Source: a virus
Lineage: Duplodnaviria; Caudoviricetes
DNA: 64,000 bases
Virus record (IMG/VR): IMGVR_UViG_3300005805_000063
Coordinates: 22,634-86,633 of that record
Direction: 5' to 3' (one strand)
A model generated the notes under the pieces. That model did no database searches. It was not told the origin of the DNA and saw only the letters and a program-made list of their open reading frames with translations. Below are positions 1-37,647 of this stretch, one piece after another. Within the stretch, counting starts at the first letter, position 1, and each line of letters starts with the position of its first letter. The position numbers were made by a program, and so were the translations under genes.

Positions 1-3000
1 TTAGCTCCACCAAGTTCACGAAATGTAAAATAACGTGGTATTTCTATTCTTTCTATATCAGCTTTCTTAGCTTCTACTTCCGCATACTGAGAGTATAGTT
101 GTTGAGCTTGTTGTTTATTTTTTAACTGCACTTCAAAGTAAGAACCTTTATCAATAGCGTAACCTTTGTCTAATAAAGATTTCCAAACTTTATTTGCAGA
201 TTTATTAATATCTGCTTTGCCAAAAGCTTCTGATTTTAAGGTTTTACCTTCTTTAGCTAATTGTTCTGCTAAAGCAATATATACTTTTGTTCCATACCCT
301 TTACCTTGAAATTCCTTTTCAAGTTCTACACCAGCCATACCTATAGAAGATGATATATAACCATTTTTATCTACAGATATTACACCTGCATATTTCCCAT
401 TTATTTTAATAGGATACGATGTTGCCTCAAAATTATCAGGATTAAATCTTGGTTCATCTAATTGTATTTCAGAAGTATTAGGCGCGGCTTCTTCTGTAGA
501 TATCTCTTCAACTTCATAAACATCCATCAAAGAAGGATGGATTACAAAATGACCACCTTGTAACCCAAAGGCAACCGCTGAGTTACGGATGTTAGTTGCA
601 ATTGTTTGAGTATACTTTGGAGCAATTGTCCTGTCATTAATTGACAGACGATTTACTGAAGCAGCATCGGTTCGATAATTAGACCCATCAGTTGAGAGTA
701 AATCCTCTCTCATGATTTCGCTAAAATATTTTACCCTTTCAGCAACTTTCATTTTACTAAGTTCCTGAATATATGACTTTGTCATATCAGACAAAGTATC
801 ATAGAACTTCTTCAGAACCGGAGAGTTGACCCAGTTAATTGCTATGGCGTTGACTAATTGGGTCAGTACATTTACCTCCATTCCTTGAGACGGGTCTTTG
901 GCACCATCTTGCTGGATACCCTTCATTGTAATATCAATGGTGGATACCTTAGGATTTGGGTCTGAAAGTTTGTTTACTCCTCGCTGACCAGTCTTTTCAG
1001 AAGATTGAAAAATAGCTTCATCAACAATATAGTCTTGAAAACCATTCTCAACCATTATGTCCATTGCCTTTTCAAAAATACCTTCTTGCTTTGTTGCATT
1101 TGAAAAATTAGGATTCATTCCTAATGCAATGATAAGCTGATAAGCATTTGACACAGATTCGCCATTGACCTGAATGACTTCGGGGAAAGTCATAGCAGAG
1201 GTCATCTGAACAAATTTTTCTATTACAAATTCGTTTCCGTTTTCAAGAATATACGGAGTGATTTCAAATTCGGCATTCTTAACAAATGATTTTGTTCCTG
1301 ATTCAAAATCATTTGAATGAGTGATGTTCTTCATAACAGGACCTACAAAAGGACCTGCGTCAAGTGCACTTGAGTAATTCTGTTTTATTCTGGTAAATGG
1401 TGTTACCAGTGTAGCACCATCCATCCATTTTTGAGATACAATTTGACCGTTTGAAAACTTAAGTACATTATTAATAGGGTCTTCAAAACGCATTACATTT
1501 GCAACCCTTGAAAGCTTTTTACCTTCATACATCAATGAGTATGGAAGAGGCTTTCCAGGATTTTGTTGCCTGAACAATGCAACGTCAGCTGCCCAATTTT
1601 TATTCCTCAGTATAAAATACGACTCGGGAGAAATCAAAGACTTAGAGCGTTTTACCATGTCGATAAAAGCTTTCTGTCCTGACTCCTTATACTGGTATTT
1701 TGGACCATTCATTAAATGCTGAAACTCTCCACTAAAGAGTAGCCAGTTGGCGTAGAAGGTTTTAATAAACTCTTCCGGAGTAGCCTTACTAGAAGTTATA
1801 GCTATTTGGTTGTAAAGAGTTACGCCACCACCTCTTTGATTCTTTGAATATTCAACAACTTTCTGTGCATCTGCAAGAATACGGTCTATAAAAGCCTGTT
1901 TATTTGCAGGATTCATGTACATATTAATGTCATCAATCAATTCTTGTTTGATTGACAAAGGTCCTTTTACAGACTTCTCATTGTAATGCACACCGGATAC
2001 CATATTAGGGTACGATATCAAGGTGTTGATTTGGTCTTCAGTAAGTTTTGAAAGTATAGAATTAAGTTCTCCAATGCTTTTTGCAGAAATTCCAACTTCG
2101 CGATAGTCATTCAAAATTTTGAATTCCAAACCAGCATAATACTTGGTTCTGCTATCAAACAAATCTCCAAGTGTTTTTTCTGCTGGCTGCAGGAAATTAT
2201 TTGAATAGAAAATTGGAGATATCTCCTGACTTGCATCTGCATAAACTGTAATCGGGAAAGTAGCTTCGTTTCTTCCGTTTTCAATCTGAGTTACATACCC
2301 CTCAATCAAATAGAGGTCAAGAAGTTCAGGAACAGTTAGCTGACTTACCGACTTAGTAAATTCAAATCCGTTTTTATTAATTTTAAATCCAAGATGTGTA
2401 AACGGAGGCTTTGAAGAAATTCCATAGGAGGAGTTTCCATCCACCAAAAGATTTGTCTGAAGTAGTGGACTTTTCTGAGCACTTGAAACAACATGTTTCA
2501 AATGGAAAATAGGAGCACTATCTCGAAGACCGTACTGACGTTTTCCAGTCCCATCTTTAAATGAGAAGTCATTTCCTAATCCTTTTGCAGAAACAAACTG
2601 CTCAATTATTTTATCCATTACCAATCCAAGGGACGGCAAAGAGGCCTGCTTTTTATTGTAGTTCTTTACAGAAGCAAAGAAGTAATCCTGAATCTGACCA
2701 AGAATTGTAGGGTCTACTGCAATGGCATCTTGAAGCATTTCAGATGTAAATCCTTCAAATCCCATGCCCTTGAGCATGCGTAAAGCATTCTCGGGAGTTA
2801 CATTTTTTTCAACTGTATAGAGTTGACCATTGAGATTTACATCACCGTTAGAAACTGAAATTCTTCCTGTGCTAAGGATTCTTGCGAACTTGTCCAGGAA
2901 TTGAGTTTTGATGTACTGAGGATTAAATCCACCAATTGGAAGCTTAGCCGTTCTTTGCTCACTAGATGTATTCTCGTCATAATAAACGTTAACATCTACA

Positions 3001-6000
3001 AATCCAGGTGAATAAACTTGACCTTTGGTAAGAAAGCTGAGTATTGCGTTGGTTAAATTCTGACCAGCAGGCGTCTCTACTCCACGAGTAGAGTAAGTAA
3101 GGTTATTGGTTTGTGACCCTGTAACAGATGAGGGTTCTGGGGATTTTGAGAAGAATCGCTTATAGATGGCCTTTGCCTCTGGCAATGAGGAGTTGCTTAA
3201 AACTTCTGCAATTTCATCCAATGTTCTAATGGCCTGTCCGTCTGAATTTGTGTTATTCTTAATCAGCTTAAGGACATTGGATATATTCTTAGAGGTGATG
3301 TAATTTCCATTTGCAAGTCTGGTATTGTACAGATAAGTTTTTACAATGGAGTTCATGCCATCTCCAAGGAGATTCTCCATTTCTTTTTCTGCAAAAGAAC
3401 CGGATTTTGACAGGTCATTTCCGTAGTAATACTCGTCTTTTGAACTATTATATTTTATAGAAGGAAAGTACTGTGCCAGTAATCCATTGAAATTGCTTCC
3501 CAAAGCATACTGAATTCGAGACTCAGTATTTGTCTTTTGGGACATGAGATTGCCATTTGACAAATAAATCTTTTTCAGATTTGTCATTGCCTCGTTTGCA
3601 TCAAGGATTCTGGGAGTTCCGCCTTCAGGAACTGTCAGAACAAGATGGCTTGCAACAACATCCTTCTTGAATTTATCAATTGCTTTTCTTGCAAGGTTAG
3701 GTTGATTTGGAAATTCCCTCCTTCTGAATTCAACAATTGAAATCGGATTTACTGAGATGGCCGGTCCTTGTACAGATTCTTGTACACTTTGTTGTACAGT
3801 TTGTTGTACAGTTTTACCAACTGGTTGAACCGGAGCAGCTTCCTTATTTTGAGTAGATATCTCAGAAAGAACTGCCTCAATTGGAATCTGTATCTTAGGA
3901 AGATCCAATTTAAAGTAGTTTGCAGAAATAACCCTATTGAGGAAATTTTCCTGATATGGTACAGATTGAGCATAAAGATTTTGCTCAAATCCTGAACTAC
4001 CTTTTGACAAAACCGGACTAAACCGAAGACCTCTTGAGAAGGCTTTATTCTCCATCATAGCCATTAAGAGTTTCCTCTTAGGCTCTGAGTTCATATTTAA
4101 AAGTTTCTTTGCGTCCTTCTCAAGAGAGATTTTAACATAATCATCTAGCAAATACTCAACTGGATATCCGCCCTCAACTCTTATCTTTTTACCATTGGCA
4201 AGAATTACTTCATGCGCTTTTCTTTCGACATCCATCTTCTTCAAGAACATGTCTACTTGAGGGTCTTTTTTAGACAGCTCTTGTTTTACATTATTGAAAA
4301 TCTCTTCGTAAAGACGTTTGCCCTTTGACCTAGGTGATTGCCAAAATGAATTGTAGAGATTTTTAAATTCAGCACTTGTTGCTTCGTAGTAGCCTTTCTG
4401 ATTTCTACTATAAAACGGAGAAAGTAATTCAACAATTTGGTCCAAGCTCAATGACTCACGATTTAGAGTCATTGTTTTGATGTCGTCTCCTAAAACATCA
4501 AATTCATTGTTATACATCTGCCTGGCCGAGTGTTTATAACTCAGTGCAACAAATGGCTCTCCTTTCAGTACGGATACTTTTCCTTTTGAATTAATTATGT
4601 CAGCCGTTGCTATTAAAATAGGACTTACAGCAATTCCTTTTGACTTTGCCTCTGATAAGATATTTGAGTATGTCTTTTTATCAACGGCTTCAGATTGCTT
4701 ATTTCCATCCGGAGATACATTTTTTGAAGAAGATTCATTTTCAATAAAAGGGTGAAAGAACTGACCCGCCCGTAATATATTATTTGAAACCGGATATGTT
4801 GCTACAATATCCTTTGTTTCACCTTGCGTAATAATATTAAGATTTCGCAAGGTTGTTTCAACCTTCTCACCTCCGGCACGATATATTACACCAAGCACAG
4901 CCCGCTTGTTATCCGGAGTAACTGCTTCAAGAAAGATTGCGTACTTTCCATTGAATTTGGAGGAATCAATTCTTGCATCTGCAACATATCCCGGAGAACC
5001 TATTTTGGCAATTGTAACCTGATAGTTTGAGTTATCGCGGACGCTTGGATTAAACAGAATTGATTTCTTTATTTCCAACTCACCCTGAACATCATAGAAT
5101 GTATTTAACAATACCCTGTTTTCGGTATTGGTCATTGCATTCATTATCCTGCGGTAATCAGCCATCTCCAAATCATCCTGACTTACAGGGCTAGGAGCAG
5201 AAGTTTCAGTTGTTGTTGGTGTCTGAACAACTGGAGGAACGGCCTGAGAAGGAGTTTTGATTGTCTCCGCAGGATTAAAAGAAGAATCAATTGTTTGGCC
5301 TTGAAGGATGCTGTCAATTTCACCAAGCATGGTCTGCTGTGAAATTTCAGGAGGTGTCATTGGCTTAAATTCCTTAACTACCCCCTCAACAGAGCTTACA
5401 GGCATTGAAGGAGATGCGTAAACAATCACACCTTTCTTTGCCCGTGTAACGGCTGTATATACTTCTTTCTGACGGATACTTGAGCCAAATATTTCACCAT
5501 CAGAAGTATCAACAACCACATAATCCCATTCATCACCTTGAGATTGTACGCTATCAAGTACATTCAGTGAAAGTGCACTTGCAGAAGATACAGCTGTATT
5601 TTCAGGATTAGCATTGATGTAAACCATTGAAGAGAGATTCTTTTCACTCTTCAGTTTTGTTGCCAAGTCAACTACTAATTTTTCAAGTTCTTCTTTATTG
5701 CTTACAAAGCGGACTCCGTTAAAATCCTTATCGTAATTCAGAGCAATATTTGAAGGAAGAGCATTGGAAAACTGGGAATTCCTTAAAGCATTTTCAAGAG
5801 CTTTTAAAGGATTGTTTACAGACCTGAATGAGAATGTCAGCCTCGGAGTTGATGGTACAGAAATTACAGGACTTGTAATTGAGTAAGTAGTTTTGCTGTT
5901 TTTCTCCCTAAATCCATTTTGTGCTTCATCATAAGTATAAATTAAATGAACTGGATTATTTGGACGGGATTGATTTACTCTTAAAAGCTCAGTGTTGATT

Positions 6001-9000
6001 TTATTCAATTCACTTGCACTCAGCAAAGCGGCTTCATCAAATATGATTGCAGATACATTTTTAACCTCATTGGATTTCAAGATATCAATAAGGCTTGAAT
6101 CAGAATGCTGAATAAAATCAGGCTTTCCTTTAAAGAACTTTTCTACATCACTACGAACCTTCTGTATTTTCTTTCCTGAAGGGTCTTTATAAGCAGTTAC
6201 AATGACATTTCCACCTGTCATTTTATTTATCATAGCTGCGATAAAAGGAATTTCCGTAACCGTTTTACCTGTTCCGGGGCCTCCGTTTACTGCAGAAGTA
6301 TAACTTAAATGAAACAGTTCTCTGCTAGAATTTTTTACCCTGAAGTCATAATTACCAGCCATTGCATTTCGCAATGCCAATTCTGCAACAAGCTGATGTT
6401 CCCTGGTAGGGGTTTTGACATCGGGTTTAAGTTCAGCAATTACCTCGCGTGCTGCCTGAACAAACTTTGTTGGGTCGTTTGAAAGAACAGCACGAGCGTA
6501 ATCATAGGTATTCTTTGCCAAAATACCTTCATCGGATAACAATTCCGGGTCACCTCCCTTAAATGTCTTTTGAAGTTTCTGCAGTACTTCGGTTCTCTGA
6601 CTTCTAACAAAGTCAAACATCTTTTTATCAACCTGAAGTGACTCTCGACGATAGCTGATATAATCTTGCTTATCAAGAGCTTCCTGCATTTCTACTTCAT
6701 GCTCAGAGAAGATTTCGCCTATTTTTGGAATATCAGTCTCAAGAAGCTTTACAAAATTCTGTAAAACATTAAACTGCTTCTCAAGTGACTTTATATAAAC
6801 CTGAAGAATCCTTGCATCGGTATTCTTTTCATTTTCATCAGAAAGAGCTTTGAGTTGTGCAAACTGGCCTTTCAGAGTGGCCAATGTCAACAGTGCATTC
6901 TTAGTATCATATACTTCTGCGCTGATAATTTCATTGTAACCTTTCTTATTCTTAAGAGCGTAGTTACCTAATACTTGGGAAATCCTGTCGTCAATTACCT
7001 GTATAATACGGTCAGGCTCAGGGCTTACAAACATTTTAGAAAGCCTGTCAGACTCTTCTTTAGGAGTTCCGGTTAATTGACCAGCAGCTCTGGCAAGCTC
7101 TTCCAATTTAGATTCTAAAGGAACGGTTGATTTACCATTCTCAAAATCATAATATAAATGAGAGTCACCCTCAATATCAGGAGCTGTTTTATAAGTTTTC
7201 TTTTGAGAAACTTTATTTACTAATTCCTCGGCTGCAAACAAAGGAGCAACTTTTGCATACCACTCCTCATTCTTATAAGGTTCAACTGCTCTTTTTAATA
7301 CTTCCTGTGAGAATCGGAAACTAAATTCCGGATTTGACGTATGTACAAGAGAAGCATCAAAATCTTCATCATCTGCAAAGATTTCATTAATGATGTTATC
7401 AACTCCTGAGTTTTTATAATTTTCTACTTCCTGATTTCTGCGGGCATTTGCCTCATCCAAAAGACGCTGTTTGGCATCTGGAGTTATGTCAAGCTCATTA
7501 AAGTTGTCCAAATTTGCTTTGGCTGAGTTTTGAATAAGCTCTTGATTTCGCTTTGAAACCTCAGATTTCAACCTGTCACGATTGTTCCTTGAATCAGTAT
7601 TCATCAAGGTGAATAACTTACCATTAAAATGGTCGTTATTTCGTAATCCAAATTCAGTCAGACCTTCAATTCCCAAATCTGAGGAGTCAATAACTGTTGA
7701 TTTCAGATGTGGATTACTCTCGACATTATAGAGACCTTCAGTAATATATCTTGAAACCTGAGACCCGGAATTAAATTCAGAAATCTCAGCTTTTTTAGCC
7801 TCGACTTGTTTGGTGAGATTTTCAATCAGCTGTTTGTCATCTGCTTTTTCTGCATTTTCAAGCTGATTGGTAAGAGTTGCTAGTTCATTTTGCAGGATGA
7901 TTTTATCCCTGCCAATTGAACTGGATTTTAATATATCCGCAAAAATGCCTGCTTTCTTCTCATTGTTTTTAATAGCATCCGTAATACCCGCCCTGTCACG
8001 GATAGTGGACATTGTGTTTAGAATCTCTCTGAGAGCAGTTGCATTTCTTGTGTTCTCGTCTCCCGTTTTTCCATCTTTTGACAAACGACCTGCTTTTTCC
8101 CAATCGTTAATCATTTTATGTACAAAACCTTCGTCATTAAAAGCAACAGCTGCTTCAAATGAATCAACTAATTCCCTATCATAGTTTGATAACTTTTTAA
8201 GAATGGGGTGTGCAATAGCACCGCCAAATGCACCTCCAGCACCTGACTGAAGAATTGCTTCAACTTCCCTTCCCAAATCCCACTGAAAGCGACCCTGTAG
8301 AGGTAGCAGCTCCGCCATTACATTATGCAGACCTCTGATACCAGTATCTACAGTTTGTTCTCCCATTTCCTCAATACCTTCAAGGAATGAGGTTTTAACA
8401 TAAGGCTTTGATGAAAGAGATATCAAAGCACTTTCAAACGTTCTGCCTACTCGATTTTGAAAAGATTTTAATGCAGATTCGGTGAATCCTTTCTTTGCAA
8501 TTGTAACTCCATAGTCTTGAGCAAGTTTTGGAGCTATTATCTTTTCAAGCTCAAGAGGCCTGATTCCGCGAACAATCATGTCGCTTAATCCTGACAACTT
8601 ATATATTGCAGCTGCATTTGCACCATATAGAATTGCAGTTTCAACAGGACTGAGATTATTTTCCCGTGAAATTTGAGCCATGGGGCCTGCTGCCATTCCA
8701 GTCATGTAAATTCGACCGGCTGCTGATGCAGTTTTTGCAGAGCCAGAAAGTGCTCCTGCAACTTTTCCAACTGCACCCATGCTAAACAACTGCATGACAG
8801 AATCAAGACCAAGTTCTGCCAAGTGTACAGGACTAAAGAAGTTTTCTTTGGTTCTATCACTAGAGGGAAGGAGATTTTGTTTCAGTTGATTTTGTATGCC
8901 AGAAACATCTGCTCCAAAAACCCTTGGAAACTCAAGCAATGAGCTGCTTGTACTATTTATAAAATTTGGAACAGATTTAACTACTGTATAAAATCCCTCA

Positions 9001-9632
9001 GACAGATAACTGGGATTTAAACCATAAATGCCCATGTTATGGGCAAAAGAATCATAGCTTTCATCAAAGCTTCTGAACTCCTCATCGGCCTTAATTGGTT
9101 CCCAATAAGTACGATTGTGAGAGTCTCTTTTATAATTACCAAATTCATCCTTGGCAAGCTTAATATCTCCCTTATACTGGGCTACAGGTATATATTCATC
9201 TCCTATTTTTACACCTGTTTTAATTGCTTGCTCCCGCTCACTAAATTTCTTGGGAGAATAGTAATCTCCAAAGTTATTTCTTCCAAAAGGGTCTTCTATC
9301 TGAGTTTTTGTTGAAAAACCAATAAGAGGTTTACGAGACCACTTATCTGTTGCAACATCTATATTGAAGTCAAGTTCGTAATCGGACTTTTTTGTCTGAT
9401 TGTAAACTTCTTTTTGCTTAGAGTAAAAATCAATAAAAGAGTTCTTATCATTCTTAAAATGCTCCTGAACAACAGGAGTTTTCCAGTATGTATCGAGATT
9501 CTCATCAAAGTTGAAATCAGACGCCTTTACCCCAGCAGCCATCAGCTGAGATGGAGTTTTCAGTTGTCCCGAGATGGCAGATGCAATCCAGTCTGGTTTC
9601 GGAGCTTGAGGAATTTGATTTTCATCTCCCAT
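1..9632 (-). CDS. Giant virion cargo protein (>3210 aa, runs off the left edge): N-terminal Gly/Ala-rich region, SF1 helicase, crAss-type virion RNA polymerase region, GNAT insertion
   Basis: Not in the ORF track because its stop lies outside the window. Manual reading from ATG at 9632 (MGDENQIPQAPKPDW...) finds no in-frame stop down to position 3. Motifs are listed in the three domain features. It follows muzzle and cargo genes, as crAss-like vRNAP genes do. Confidence 0.9.
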   Translation of the reverse strand, partial: MGDENQIPQAPKPDWIASAISGQLKTPSQLMAAGVKASDFNFDENLDTYWKTPVVQEHFKNDKNSFIDFYSKQKEVYNQTKKSDYELDFNIDVATDKWSRKPLIGFSTKTQIEDPFGRNNFGDYYSPKKFSEREQAIKTGVKIGDEYIPVAQYKGDIKLAKDEFGNYKRDSHNRTYWEPIKADEEFRSFDESYDSFAHNMGIYGLNPSYLSEGFYTVVKSVPNFINSTSSSLLEFPRVFGADVSGIQNQLKQNLLPSSDRTKENFFSPVHLAELGLDSVMQLFSMGAVGKVAGALSGSAKTASAAGRIYMTGMAAGPMAQISRENNLSPVETAILYGANAAAIYKLSGLSDMIVRGIRPLELEKIIAPKLAQDYGVTIAKKGFTESALKSFQNRVGRTFESALISLSSKPYVKTSFLEGIEEMGEQTVDTGIRGLHNVMAELLPLQGRFQWDLGREVEAILQSGAGGAFGGAIAHPILKKLSNYDRELVDSFEAAVAFNDEGFVHKMINDWEKAGRLSKDGKTGDENTRNATALREILNTMSTIRDRAGITDAIKNNEKKAGIFADILKSSSIGRDKIILQNELATLTNQLENAEKADDKQLIENLTKQVEAKKAEISEFNSGSQVSRYITEGLYNVESNPHLKSTVIDSSDLGIEGLTEFGLRNNDHFNGKLFTLMNTDSRNNRDRLKSEVSKRNQELIQNSAKANLDNFNELDITPDAKQRLLDEANARRNQEVENYKNSGVDNIINEIFADDEDFDASLVHTSNPEFSFRFSQEVLKRAVEPYKNEEWYAKVAPLFAAEELVNKVSQKKTYKTAPDIEGDSHLYYDFENGKSTVPLESKLEELARAAGQLTGTPKEESDRLSKMFVSPEPDRIIQVIDDRISQVLGNYALKNKKGYNEIISAEVYDTKNALLTLATLKGQFAQLKALSDENEKNTDARILQVYIKSLEKQFNVLQNFVKLLETDIPKIGEIFSEHEVEMQEALDKQDYISYRRESLQVDKKMFDFVRSQRTEVLQKLQKTFKGGDPELLSDEGILAKNTYDYARAVLSNDPTKFVQAAREVIAELKPDVKTPTREHQLVAELALRNAMAGNYDFRVKNSSRELFHLSYTSAVNGGPGTGKTVTEIPFIAAMINKMTGGNVIVTAYKDPSGKKIQKVRSDVEKFFKGKPDFIQHSDSSLIDILKSNEVKNVSAIIFDEAALLSASELNKINTELLRVNQSRPNNPVHLIYTYDEAQNGFREKNSKTTYSITSPVISVPSTPRLTFSFRSVNNPLKALENALRNSQFSNALPSNIALNYDKDFNGVRFVSNKEELEKLVVDLATKLKSEKNLSSMVYINANPENTAVSSASALSLNVLDSVQSQGDEWDYVVVDTSDGEIFGSSIRQKEVYTAVTRAKKGVIVYASPSMPVSSVEGVVKEFKPMTPPEISQQTMLGEIDSILQGQTIDSSFNPAETIKTPSQAVPPVVQTPTTTETSAPSPVSQDDLEMADYRRIMNAMTNTENRVLLNTFYDVQGELEIKKSILFNPSVRDNSNYQVTIAKIGSPGYVADARIDSSKFNGKYAIFLEAVTPDNKRAVLGVIYRAGGEKVETTLRNLNIITQGETKDIVATYPVSNNILRAGQFFHPFIENESSSKNVSPDGNKQSEAVDKKTYSNILSEAKSKGIAVSPILIATADIINSKGKVSVLKGEPFVALSYKHSARQMYNNEFDVLGDDIKTMTLNRESLSLDQIVELLSPFYSRNQKGYYEATSAEFKNLYNSFWQSPRSKGKRLYEEIFNNVKQELSKKDPQVDMFLKKMDVERKAHEVILANGKKIRVEGGYPVEYLLDDYVKISLEKDAKKLLNMNSEPKRKLLMAMMENKAFSRGLRFSPVLSKGSSGFEQNLYAQSVPYQENFLNRVISANYFKLDLPKIQIPIEAVLSEISTQNKEAAPVQPVGKTVQQTVQQSVQESVQGPAISVNPISIVEFRRREFPNQPNLARKAIDKFKKDVVASHLVLTVPEGGTPRILDANEAMTNLKKIYLSNGNLMSQKTNTESRIQYALGSNFNGLLAQYFPSIKYNSSKDEYYYGNDLSKSGSFAEKEMENLLGDGMNSIVKTYLYNTRLANGNYITSKNISNVLKLIKNNTNSDGQAIRTLDEIAEVLSNSSLPEAKAIYKRFFSKSPEPSSVTGSQTNNLTYSTRGVETPAGQNLTNAILSFLTKGQVYSPGFVDVNVYYDENTSSEQRTAKLPIGGFNPQYIKTQFLDKFARILSTGRISVSNGDVNLNGQLYTVEKNVTPENALRMLKGMGFEGFTSEMLQDAIAVDPTILGQIQDYFFASVKNYNKKQASLPSLGLVMDKIIEQFVSAKGLGNDFSFKDGTGKRQYGLRDSAPIFHLKHVVSSAQKSPLLQTNLLVDGNSSYGISSKPPFTHLGFKINKNGFEFTKSVSQLTVPELLDLYLIEGYVTQIENGRNEATFPITVYADASQEISPIFYSNNFLQPAEKTLGDLFDSRTKYYAGLEFKILNDYREVGISAKSIGELNSILSKLTEDQINTLISYPNMVSGVHYNEKSVKGPLSIKQELIDDINMYMNPANKQAFIDRILADAQKVVEYSKNQRGGGVTLYNQIAITSSKATPEEFIKTFYANWLLFSGEFQHLMNGPKYQYKESGQKAFIDMVKRSKSLISPESYFILRNKNWAADVALFRQQNPGKPLPYSLMYEGKKLSRVANVMRFEDPINNVLKFSNGQIVSQKWMDGATLVTPFTRIKQNYSSALDAGPFVGPVMKNITHSNDFESGTKSFVKNAEFEITPYILENGNEFVIEKFVQMTSAMTFPEVIQVNGESVSNAYQLIIALGMNPNFSNATKQEGIFEKAMDIMVENGFQDYIVDEAIFQSSEKTGQRGVNKLSDPNPKVSTIDITMKGIQQDGAKDPSQGMEVNVLTQLVNAIAINWVNSPVLKKFYDTLSDMTKSYIQELSKMKVAERVKYFSEIMREDLLSTDGSNYRTDAASVNRLSINDRTIAPKYTQTIATNIRNSAVAFGLQGGHFVIHPSLMDVYEVEEISTEEAAPNTSEIQLDEPRFNPDNFEATSYPIKINGKYAGVISVDKNGYISSSIGMAGVELEKEFQGKGYGTKVYIALAEQLAKEGKTLKSEAFGKADINKSANKVWKSLLDKGYAIDKGSYFEVQLKNKQQAQQLYSQYAEVEAKKADIERIEIPRYFTFRELGGA
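130..420 (-). other. GNAT acetyltransferase-like domain inserted in the giant ORF
   Basis: GVELEKEFQGKGYGTKVYIAL carries the acetyl-CoA-binding motif A (QGKGYG, 291-308), followed by SANKVWKSL, typical of GNAT C-terminal helices. Confidence 0.75.
500..2600 (-). other. crAss-type virion RNA polymerase, beta-like portion, inside the giant ORF
   Basis: Ordered segments PITVYADAS, DMVKRSKSLISP, WMDGATLVTP, KNAEFEIT, VDEAIFQSSEKTG, GIQQD, FGLQGGHFV resemble blocks I recall from crAss/phi14:2-type RNAPs. The DxDxD catalytic motif is not in the window and is expected further left. Confidence 0.7.
5410..6400 (-). other. Superfamily 1 (RecD/UvrD-like) helicase domain inside the giant ORF
   Basis: Walker A GGPGTGKT (6261-6284), Walker B IIFDEA, motif III-like TYDEAQ, motif IV-like RLTFSFRS, motif V SQGDEWDYVVV, motif VI YTAVTRAK, in the correct order. 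Confidence 0.9.
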
Positions 9633-9640
9633 GTTATGCT

Positions 9641-35082: not shown

Positions 35083-35266
35083 TGGCCCTGTCCACGGACA
35101 GGTTCATACCATTCTTATACATATCCAGTTCAGTCAAACAGGCCATGCCAAACTCCAGCATCTGACGACGCTCCTTCTCCAGCCATTCCTTTGACTCCCG
35201 GTCAAATCTTTCATTGCGACCGGACTTGGCCACTTCATCAACTATTTCCTTGAGGACTGTTTTCAT
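35039..35266 (-). CDS. Hypothetical protein (75 aa)
   Basis: Coupled to neighbouring genes; charged helical composition. Confidence 0.55.
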   Translation of the reverse strand: MKTVLKEIVDEVAKSGRNERFDRESKEWLEKERRQMLEFGMACLTELDMYKNGMNLSVDRAIEEIFKSKFSDNEL

Positions 35267-35753
35267 CTATCATTTGTGGGTTTATTCCTAAATCCAATTC
35301 AGCATACTTCTTAAACTTCGGGGCATCAGCCTCCCGGGTCTCAGCCTCAATCTCCTTGACTGACCTCACCCGGTCAGCCACATCAGACGACCAAAACAAC
35401 TTAGGGTTGACCCTGTAAACGCCGCGGGAAATGCGGATAATAATCCCGACATCCGTCAGCTCCCTTATCGCAGCCTTCAGGGTACTCTCACTATAAGACT
35501 TTGGCCGGGCTATAGAACCCAATGCCTTATTAAACTCCGCATACATCCGGTTGGAATACGCAAACCCATTATCCTCACTTACCCGACCCATGACCCACAA
35601 TATAAAATCCTTGGAACACGATGAAGAAAGAGAAGCCACCTGATTAAATGCAGCATTATAAAACTGAAAATAATCCATGTCCAAATCCACATACCCTTGC
35701 TTGGTCTTTTGGACAACCTCCTGCGTTTCGAAGAATACCCTGCGCCGTTTCAT
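35238..35753 (-). CDS. RepL-like winged-helix DNA-binding protein; first gene of the late arm
   Basis: SESTLKAAIRELTDVGIIIRISRGVYRVNPKLFW matches the wHTH plus GxYxVNP wing of plasmid RepL-family proteins. Confidence 0.7.
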   Translation of the reverse strand: MKRRRVFFETQEVVQKTKQGYVDLDMDYFQFYNAAFNQVASLSSSCSKDFILWVMGRVSEDNGFAYSNRMYAEFNKALGSIARPKSYSESTLKAAIRELTDVGIIIRISRGVYRVNPKLFWSSDVADRVRSVKEIEAETREADAPKFKKYAELDLGINPQMIDENSPQGNS

Positions 35754-35876: not shown

Positions 35877-35939
35877 AGTATACTGGGGATATACTTGAAG
35901 TATACCGGGGATATACTCTGAGTATACTGGGGATATACT
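35877..35939. repeat. Three 19-bp dyad repeats AGTATAC(T/C)GGGGATATACT with 22-bp period (iteron/operator-like)
   Basis: Copies at 35877-35895, 35899-35917 and 35921-35939 with one mismatch. Each has inverted arms AGTATA/TATACT around a 7-bp core; spacers are 3 bp. Confidence 0.9.
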
Positions 35940-36703: not shown

Positions 36704-36797
36704 GCTTGCTTGTCAATCACCAACCAACCTCATTTAAACCAACTGAAACTCACATCTTTTTTATATATATTCTTAACTGCAAACTAAACCCAAATCC

Positions 36798-36968
36798 ATG
36801 ATTACTGTAATTGCACGAAGCACAAAGTTTTTGTACATAAACAAAAACAATAGACTTATTTCTGTAATGCTTAACCATTCAAAAGAAGAAATTAATAATG
36901 AGTTTTTCTCTCTACCTTTCTTCAGTAATGAAGATGAAGTAAGAAAGGCTTTTCCTGAGCTTATGTAA
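36798..36968 (+). CDS. Small hypothetical protein (56 aa, MITVIARSTK...FPELM)
   Basis: Below the ORF-track cutoff; A-rich leader; followed by a terminator. Confidence 0.55.
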   Translation: MITVIARSTKFLYINKNNRLISVMLNHSKEEINNEFFSLPFFSNEDEVRKAFPELM

Positions 36969-36970
36969 GA

Positions 36971-36998
36971 ACTAAAGGGGTGAAATTCCCCTTTTTAG
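36971..36998 (+). terminator. Intrinsic terminator
   Basis: AAAGGGG-TGAAATT-CCCCTTT stem followed by further Ts. Confidence 0.75.
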
Positions 36999-37230
36999 TA
37001 ATGCACCATAACTCACGTGGATATAAAGACTTCTTAGTAAAGGCTCATAGTTAACTATGTACTATTGGCGGGACTAAGATGTGAAACCACACTGATAATC
37101 AATTAGGAGATGAAAACGTCCACCTACATTATCAGTCTCCCAAGGGTGAGCAGTTGTAATAATAGAATCAGAACCGGGAATAAGTCATGTTTTGAACTCC
37201 CCTGAGATTATTACAACTGAGTGCAGAGGG
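36999..37230 (+). ncRNA. Twister-ribozyme-like RNA with about 120 nt inserted in L4
   Basis: UAA (36999-37001), P2 UGCA/UGCA, T1 CC/GG, P4 CUCAC/GUGAG, L4 UCCCAAGG, P5 13-bp perfect stem, 3' GAGGG supplying T2 CCC/GGG. P1 is weak. Confidence 0.6.
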
Positions 37231-37400
37231 AAGCAAAAATCCTAACCTCAATGAGCACAAGGTCAGGTCTGGAGTTAACCAGTTAAAGTCTCCCGCAAGA
37301 GAAGTCTCAGTCAGGCACTTGACAATAAAATAAAAAGGTGAAAACGACCTTTTTGCGTAAGGTTAACCAGTGTAGTGTCACACTGCTTACGATTTCCCTT

Positions 37401-37461
37401 ATTATACTTTCCACCGTTATTCTTTAATAACGCAAACCATATTATACTTTCCTTTAATAAC
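37401..37461 (+). repeat. Direct repeat ATTATACTTTCC (37401 and 37441), each followed by CTTTAATAAC
   Basis: 12-bp exact repeat with 40-bp spacing, upstream of the 37477 ORF. Confidence 0.7.
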
Positions 37462-37476
37462 AACTAACCCAAATCC

Positions 37477-37647
37477 ATGAAAACGTTCAATTACATCATC
37501 GCAAACCTCCTGATGCTTGGTTGCATTTGGAGTCTGTTCACAAGTAATGATTCAGTATCGCTGAATCCAGGCTTTATCCTGCTGCTTGTTGCTATCATCT
37601 TTTTCCTGTTTGCCCTTATCGAAGAAGAAAAAGAAAAAAGGAGATGA
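37477..37647 (+). CDS. Small two-TM membrane protein (56 aa)
   Basis: MKTFNYIIANLLMLGCIWSLF..GFILLLVAIIFFLFALIEEEKEKRR; its leader is shared with the 36798 ORF. Confidence 0.65.
   Translation: MKTFNYIIANLLMLGCIWSLFTSNDSVSLNPGFILLLVAIIFFLFALIEEEKEKRR

Follow-up and report, generated by a model that had tools for sequence, protein, structure and literature searches.

Can a loop from which twister ribozymes build both of their active-site pseudoknots hold a large structured domain and still belong to a working twister? The question is raised by positions 36974–37240 (+) of the window, the whole 64,000-nt stretch analysed here, which is part of an 86.6-kb IMG/VR virus record. A sequence-only reading had described the strings between 36999 and 37230, including a 13-bp stem, as an expanded twister variant, and all of them lie where it placed them. 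We conclude that the element is very probably a P1-type twister-class self-cleaving ribozyme carrying a conserved domain in L4; we infer its cleavage, its cut site and the role of the insert from sequence. It is a new structural variant within an uncatalogued phage branch of a known class.

The source phage is crAss-like, its record encoding a crAss-type major capsid protein (PF23898, E = 4.6e-48) and a P22-like portal. Structural genes occupy the minus strand up to ~35750 and small early-type open reading frames (ORFs) the plus strand from ~36300. The element sits in this early-gene region, in the gene-free gap between ORFs 36798–36968 and 37477–37647. No GenBank phage matched 36700–37500 by blastn, a 114-aa ORF flanking the element had no relatives in IMG/VR, and the metatranscriptome of one freshwater run yielded a single 187-nt contig, at 37437–37623, and none over the ribozyme.

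The surroundings contain further repeats. Three copies of a 19-nt palindrome-like AGTATACTGGGGATATACT, spaced at 22 nt (35877–35939), lie within the divergent intergenic region and adjoin a 171-aa RepL/HTH-like ORF (35238–35753, minus); they look like candidate operator sites for that regulator. Both small ribozyme-flanking ORFs share an identical 15-nt leader and start, AACCCAAATCCATGA (36787–36801 and 37466–37480), and a 16-nt motif, CC(T/A)TATTATACTTTCC, occurs twice between the ribozyme and the next ORF (37397–37412 and 37437–37452), where it may be a promoter or leader module. At the far end of the window, a minus-strand ORF of at least 3,210 aa (3–9632) uses the standard code and extends past the window start; stop-codon recoding in 1–9640 was considered and rejected, the region being this one giant standard-code ORF that leaves the window. 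GAGCACA-type motifs are not enriched within the window.

The element opens with a P0 hairpin (36974–36994, +; AAAGGGG and CCCCUUU around a UGAAAUU loop), evident in the sequence and in the minimum-energy fold and positioned directly 3′ of the stop codon of ORF 36798–36968. P0 is terminator-like, with a GGGG/CCCC stem and UUUUU after it; a consensus terminator scan did not list it. The 5′ strand of P1 (36993–36998, read from the sequence) leads into the predicted cleavage site, U36999/A37000, followed by A37001 in the 5′ strand of L1 (36999–37001). Next come the P2 5′ strand UGCA (37002–37005, pairing with 37222–37225), the L2 5′ strand (37006–37011), comprising a CC at 37006–37007 that can pair with G37144–G37145 and an AUAA linker (37008–37011), and the P4 5′ strand CUCAC (37012–37016), which pairs with GUGAG (37146–37150).

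Between this P4 strand and UCCC (37138–37141) the sequence-only reading had estimated about 120 nt; the distance is 121 nt (37017–37137), and it is filled by two hairpins. Stem A (37017–37090, +) is built from a base helix (GUGG 37017–37020 with CCAC 37087–37090), a conserved internal loop (AUAUAAAG 37021–37028 with GAAA 37083–37086), a near-invariant inner helix containing a U.U mismatch (ACUUCUUAG 37029–37037 with CUAAGAUGU 37074–37082) and a variable tip. Stem B (37092–37135, +) pairs CUGAUAAU (37092–37099) with AUUAUCAG (37128–37135), again below a variable tip. The tip of stem B at 37110–37133 (ATGAAAACGTCCACCTACATTATC) is identical at 20 of 24 positions to the first 24 nt of ORF 37477–37647 (37477–37500), a likeness that could be a recombination relic or chance.

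Beyond the insert, the L4 core (37136–37145, +) reads UCU, CCC (37139–37141), A37142, A37143 and GG (37144–37145). Its CCC pairs with GGG 37228–37230 as a pseudoknot, and A37142 presumably makes an A.A contact with A37227. The P4 3′ strand GUGAG (37146–37150) is followed by the P5 stem-loop (37151–37219), a perfect 13-bp base (37151–37163 with 37207–37219) closing a variable interior, and then by 37220–37230, all on the plus strand: an AG linker (37220–37221), the P2 3′ strand UGCA (37222–37225), G37226, A37227 and the GGG. P1 had been described as weak; it is indeed weak and competes with P0, but it is not absent. Its 3′ strand CAAAAA (37234–37239, +), identified from the sequence and from P1 of the family, lies 3′ of a bulged AAG (37231–37233), and a helix of five pairs with one mismatch (G36998:C37234, A.A, then four U:A) would form in a register shifted by this 3-nt bulge.

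The minimum-energy fold of 36970–37242 contains P0, P2, P4, stems A and B, and P5, with z = −4.45 relative to dinucleotide shuffles. The next 130 nt (37231–37360) fold no better than shuffles (z = −1.1), so the structured RNA is the ~270-nt element itself; a larger ornate RNA that includes this tail was rejected on that value and on its lack of conservation. Two alternative pairings were discarded as well. One joins AGACUUCU in stem A to AGAAGUCU at 37301–37308 and is attributable to chance: of 17 other insert forms checked, 16 have no complement of AGACUUCU nearby, and the remaining one (L024) has a chance-level GAAGTC match. The other joins the P4 strand CUCAC to the conserved GUGA of stem A; P4 covaries, whereas GUGAAA does not.

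This layout fits the published twister point for point, and on that fit we assign the element to type P1 (Roth et al. 2014 as cited in PMC11662667 and PMC6154101; Osa-1-4, PDB 4OJI; Rfam RF03160). Twister and window share the order P1, U/AA, P2, L2, P4, L4, P4′, P5, P2′, GA, GGG, P1′, the L4-to-L1 pseudoknot, with strands that could form the second one from L4 to L2, a catalytic A after the cut, a G opening the L1 3′ strand and an upstream P0 hairpin, a known optional twister element (PMC11662667). In rice (O. sativa), P4–L4 is CCGG-UCCCAAGC-CCGG (PMC11662667); the phage L4 core is UCCCAAGG, and the core of the window equals the insert-free loop UUCCCAAGG, near to rice UCCCAAGC. In twisters the A immediately downstream of the scissile bond acts as general acid and the G that begins the L1 3′ strand as general base; A2 is indispensable, a trans A.A pair forms part of the longer pseudoknot, and A6 of L4 is important (PMC11662667). 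The phage family agrees at each of these positions (A1 and A2, the G of the general base, the A.A contact, and A6 of L4), and by analogy A37000 is the presumed general acid and G37226 the presumed general base. An A-to-C change after the general-base G is tolerated (PMC11662667), and P1 is dispensable (PMC6154101).

The departures from the published class are specific. P0, P3 and P5 are optional and found in 21%, 78% and 1% of annotated twisters, respectively (PMC6154101, PMC11662667); by its sequences, the phage family is a P1-type twister that has P0, lacks P3 and always has P5, which is long. Its 3′ junction before P2′ is AG only, its 2-bp pseudoknot is CC:GG where that of twister is GC:GC, and L4, compact in published twisters (~8–9 nt), carries in the window a 121-nt two-hairpin domain at position 1. 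The earlier reading had named the two pseudoknots T1 and T2; the strands for both pairings are present, but the labels are swapped relative to the stacking order P1-T1-P2-T2 (PMC6154101), which leaves the substance unaffected.

The sequence-only reading had suggested that standard covariance models might overlook such an element, and those of Rfam do. The Rfam models twister-P1, -P3 and -P5 gave no match at E ≤ 10 to the window or to insert-free members as short as 62 nt and 81 nt, L046 and the 62-nt member in L067 being the loci scanned; across 11 loci no twister match reached the gathering score. Rfam scans of the window and its insert-free relatives returned chance-level matches only, and none of the hatchet, pistol and twister-sister models matches the window.

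Homologues were instead found by sequence. The exact 18-mer TAATGCACCATAACTCAC from the 5′ end of the element is present in 64 IMG/VR contigs, nearly all of which run on into the same ribozyme. Most continue as TTCCCAAGG-GTGAG-CAGTTGTAAT...ATTACAACTG-AG-TGCA-GA-GGG, giving a contiguous, insert-free core that reads, as RNA, UAAUGCACCAUAACUCAC-U-UCCCAAGG-GUGAG-P5-AG-UGCA-GA-GGG; in these contigs the compact 9-nt loop UUCCCAAGG replaces the 121-nt insert. Relaxing the search pattern to leave P2 and P4 unconstrained recovered 18 more contigs, with P2 and P4 strands complementary in all 18. As a chance control, 596 Gb of prokaryote genomes held nine matches to TAATGCACCATAACTCAC, eight of them unrelated chance sequence and the ninth on a short contig of a metagenome bin (MAG) that may derive from a phage. 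The element thus recurs far beyond chance.

A covariance model built from 41 insert-free members with the window excluded (R1) matched the window at 37113–37240 (41.3 bits, E = 2.6e-9), that is, over the 3′ two-thirds of the element. R1 found 113 copies at E < 0.001 in 99 loci, and a phage often has two or three of them, with tandem arrangements common; the window element is the sole R1 copy in its phage record. Insert-free examples (L067 3146–3207, 62 nt; L009; L046) share with the window an identical or near-identical core, the P0/P1/P2/P4/P5 layout and a phage intergenic setting, and differ in having the 9-nt L4 and neither stem A nor stem B. Insert-free and insert-bearing copies often stand in tandem, as in L074 and L002. 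P5 ranges from 14 to 288 nt among members. Of 89 members, 65% have a stable upstream hairpin, versus 20% of random 45-mers, and hairpin plus T-run occurs in 18% versus 1.3% of controls.

Fragments related to the family also occur. In L044 (9665–9760) and L059 (1638–1730) an insert-type twister is represented by its 5′ half, stem A included, which runs into an open reading frame; these are truncated or disrupted copies, with the 3′ half absent within 3 kb and no covariance-model match. Lone hairpins with the P5-base stem CAGTTGTAAT...ATTACAACTG and no twister core were seen at L010 ~7225–7325 (= L062) and in L054 past 8863, flanked by ATACA/TGTAT-like arms.

Covariation among the insert-free members carries the structural assignment. 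Alignment A1 comprises the 41 sequences and was scored for the twister helices and both pseudoknots (30 pairs). Of its cells, 92.1% are paired, versus 33–47% when the 3′ partners are slid by 1–3 columns, and double-sided changes occur at 22 of 30 pairs; none of 500 shuffles reached the observed values. Compensatory changes were found at all six P1 pairs, all five P4 pairs (99.5% paired), nine of ten pairs of the P5 base, one of four P2 pairs (100% paired) and one of three pairs of the CCC:GGG pseudoknot (CCA:UGG). Across the family P2 also appears as UGUA/UACA, CACA/UGUG, UACA/UGUA and UGCG/CGCA, and the pseudoknot as CCA:UGG, CCU:AGG and CAC:GUG, fully paired throughout A1 and A3 (the alignment of insert-bearing sequences described below); in the first set, all ten CCA copies have UGG. 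Every sequence of A1 (41) and A3 (16) has AA after the cut site, and all those of A1 have GA before GGG.

The 2-bp pseudoknot is a different matter. The window does have CC:GG (C37006–C37007 with G37144–G37145), as the sequence-only reading held, but its idea that this pair had covaried fares less well: covariation support is weak, since the family mostly shows CC:GG or UC:GG wobbles, plus CC:GA mismatches and one compensatory UC:GA (L074). The sequences of P2 and of the P5 base are almost invariant, so part of the conservation of the family could reflect recent spread rather than structure.

The insert itself is recurrent. First scans gave 18 distinct insert-bearing copies; a scan for the stem-A motif then gave at least 119 stretches, at least 63 of them distinct copies preceded by a twister 5′ half. 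Among the matches listed, a matching stem A 3′ strand was present in 57 of 63 twister-preceded copies versus 4 of 44 in other contexts, the latter looking mostly like chance occurrences in coding sequence. The place of the insert is constant, between the P4 5′ strand and (U)CU-CCC, which is position 1 of L4. The stem A base is a 4-bp GURG/CYAC helix whose third pair is G-C in 35 and A-U in 22 of the matches listed, with no mismatches, and the base before the cut (N-1) is U in all but two of the 63 insert forms listed. Within stem A the family keeps the internal loop AUAUAAAG/GAAA and an inner helix, ACUUCUUA/UAAGAUGU, with a conserved U.U, below a variable tip. Stem B (CUGAUUAA/UUAAUCAG) is 93.8% paired, with compensatory changes at four of eight pairs and a variable tip. 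In a short form (L024, L026 and L051), a 12-nt AU loop, AUAUAUAUAAAA, takes the place of the inner part of stem A.

A resemblance to the hammerhead within the insert (GAAAC...CUGAUNA) was pursued and rejected. A hammerhead has the core CUGANGA with G8, followed by helix II, GAAA, helix III and an NUH cut site, arranged around a three-way junction. The corresponding string of the insert, GUGAAACCAC(A)CUGAUAA, lacks G8: the window has A there and most relatives have U (CUGAUUA). GAAA and CUGAU have no helices between them, and the order of elements gives the wrong topology.

Do insert-bearing copies still behave as twisters? In alignment A3 (16 insert-bearing sequences), 90.5% of cells are paired versus 33–45% when slid, and P2, P4, the CCC:GGG pseudoknot, stem A and stem B all covary within the subclass. 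We also located 42 complete insert forms through anchors that leave the pairing free. All P2 pairs form in 40 of them, in five sequence types; P4 has at least four of five pairs in 41, in 14 strand combinations; the CCC:GGG pseudoknot is fully paired in 39, with CCU:AGG and CCA:UGG among them; and GA precedes it in 41, the single exception being GC. The compensatory changes in P2, P4 and CCC:GGG that the sequence-only reading had proposed to look for are thus found in plain and insert forms alike. Continued covariation of the subclass helices, with the catalytic A-A and G-A preserved, indicates that the ribozyme core is under selection after domain gain, which argues against a disabling insertion.

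These counts also bear on whether insert-bearing copies are catalytically dead twister descendants, retained because the RNA serves some other purpose, for instance as a stable 5′ leader, a scaffold that binds protein, or a decoy. Such a fate would suit an insertion into L4, on which both pseudoknots depend. Eight of 42 insert forms have a C.A mismatch within the 2-bp pseudoknot, which points the same way, imperfections in PK1 reportedly being more deleterious than those in PK2 (PMC11662667), and so do degenerate copies in relatives, one in L056 and one in L126 (3971–3847), with GAG instead of GGG, ahead of the syntenic insert-bearing twister. Yet AA, GA and CCC:GGG persist in ~40 of 42 insert forms, a diverse set in which compensatory changes also occur, and only continuing selection for the twister fold would predict this pattern. 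The window is not among the C.A forms, and every pseudoknot pair in its copy is intact. Moreover, L4 locations 1 and 9 tolerate changes in tested twisters, and location 1 is where the domain enters, although that L4 analysis covers short imperfections only and the insert here is 121 nt (PMC11662667). We regard catalytic death as unlikely. A related notion, that the insert compensates for a weak 2-bp pseudoknot, was dropped: C.A occurs in 9 of 48 insert forms versus 0 of ~12 unselected plain ones, a difference that is not significant between samples that are non-independent.

The favoured reading remains a twister whose core is preserved around the added domain; three lines of evidence support the original proposal of an expanded variant, namely homologues with an insert-free core, covariation of helices and of CCC:GGG, and recurrence of the insert as a subclass. 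In this ribozyme, the RNA would fold into P0, a weak P1, P2, P4 and a long P5, and the two pseudoknots, CCC:GGG and GG 37144–37145:CC 37006–37007, would tie L4 to the internal loops. The fold would place A37000, as general acid, and G37226, as general base, at the scissile phosphate. If the RNA behaves as characterised twisters do, it would be cut between U36999 and A37000, leaving an upstream product that ends in a 2′,3′-cyclic phosphate just past the P0 hairpin and a downstream product that starts with a 5′-OH and includes the folded ribozyme. Stems A and B would form a selected peripheral domain at L4 position 1, in the linker from P4 to CCC, and the insert most likely stabilises or modulates the active fold. 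Under the published stacking order, it would exit near the P1/pseudoknot junction and hence near the active site, where a 121-nt domain could slow or block folding.

A more elaborate role would have stems A and B recognise a ligand, be it a small molecule, a second RNA or a protein of phage or host, so that binding gates the L4 pseudoknots and decides docking and cutting, as in a natural allosteric twister. The domain is placed exactly where L4 docking could be controlled. The AUAUAAAG/GAAA loop and the ACUUCUUA/UAAGAUGU helix with its U.U are near-invariant beside helices that covary, a signature of a specific binding or tertiary-contact site; an intramolecular tertiary contact, however, explains this invariance equally well. 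The insert has no match among Rfam aptamers or motifs, no gene association indicates a ligand, and the short forms of L024, L026 and L051 replace the inner part of stem A, so that the invariant loop is not essential to the subclass. That the insert is a sensor therefore strikes us as doubtful, and a stabilising or modulating domain is the better account.

What the element does for the phage is suggested by its relatives. In L126 and L123 (large terminase subunit, TerL, 82% identical), syntenic with the window, an insert-bearing copy lies at the corresponding site. Synteny between the window and L126 holds upstream, breaks just after the ribozyme and resumes ~0.8–1 kb further on, at ORF 37835; because similarity stops right after it, the ribozyme stands at the head of a variable run of small genes. 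Copies in L011 and L026, from other phages, lie immediately 5′ of tRNAs. Judged from this arrangement, the element probably separates the RNA of the upstream small gene from the variable gene cassette that follows. Directly after the syntenic twister, L126 also has a tRNA-like 3′ part, GGTTCAAGTCCTGCTCCA (3480–3385, minus); ARAGORN called no tRNA there, and the element may be an unusual or intron-bearing tRNA.

The same borders could be read differently, with the conserved sequence acting mainly as a DNA recombination linker between small-gene cassettes and the RNA fold secondary. The core is near-identical in phages with unrelated flanks, copies are often tandem or two to three per phage, and the break and return of synteny around the window element would suit such a site. 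Compensatory changes in five helices and a pseudoknot, however, are unexplainable by a DNA site, and a DNA role may coexist with the ribozyme without replacing it; as a replacement for the ribozyme, a linker is highly improbable.

A self-cleaving ribozyme has company in such surroundings. Hatchet, pistol and twister-sister were described from phage-associated loci (Weinberg et al. 2015 as cited in PMC10085705); like the window element, they are small self-cleaving RNA classes near phage genes, and their folds and catalytic cores differ from it. Self-cleaving ribozymes cluster near phage genes, with no established biological role in the account given by PMC10085705. Within 2 kb, L002 contains a hatchet (5635–5767; Rfam 78 bits), a plain twister (6733–6874) and an insert-bearing twister (7250–7629), the hatchet ~1 kb from the two family copies, a neighbour that fits this known clustering (PMC10085705).

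The loci fetched thus hold a large phage-borne branch of twisters, with more than 100 copies, that is invisible to Rfam models, and virome ribozyme censuses that depend on those models undercount it. The branch indicates that twister L4, the builder of both active-site pseudoknots, hosts a structured domain of 100–260 nt in nature, which bears on models of twister folding; in engineering, aptamers could be attached at L4 position 1. Should the insert prove to be a sensor, this would be the first twister in nature under allosteric control, one that times when early phage transcripts are separated. With elements that follow hairpins, precede tRNAs and head variable small-gene cassettes, the family offers a testable setting for the function of phage ribozymes.
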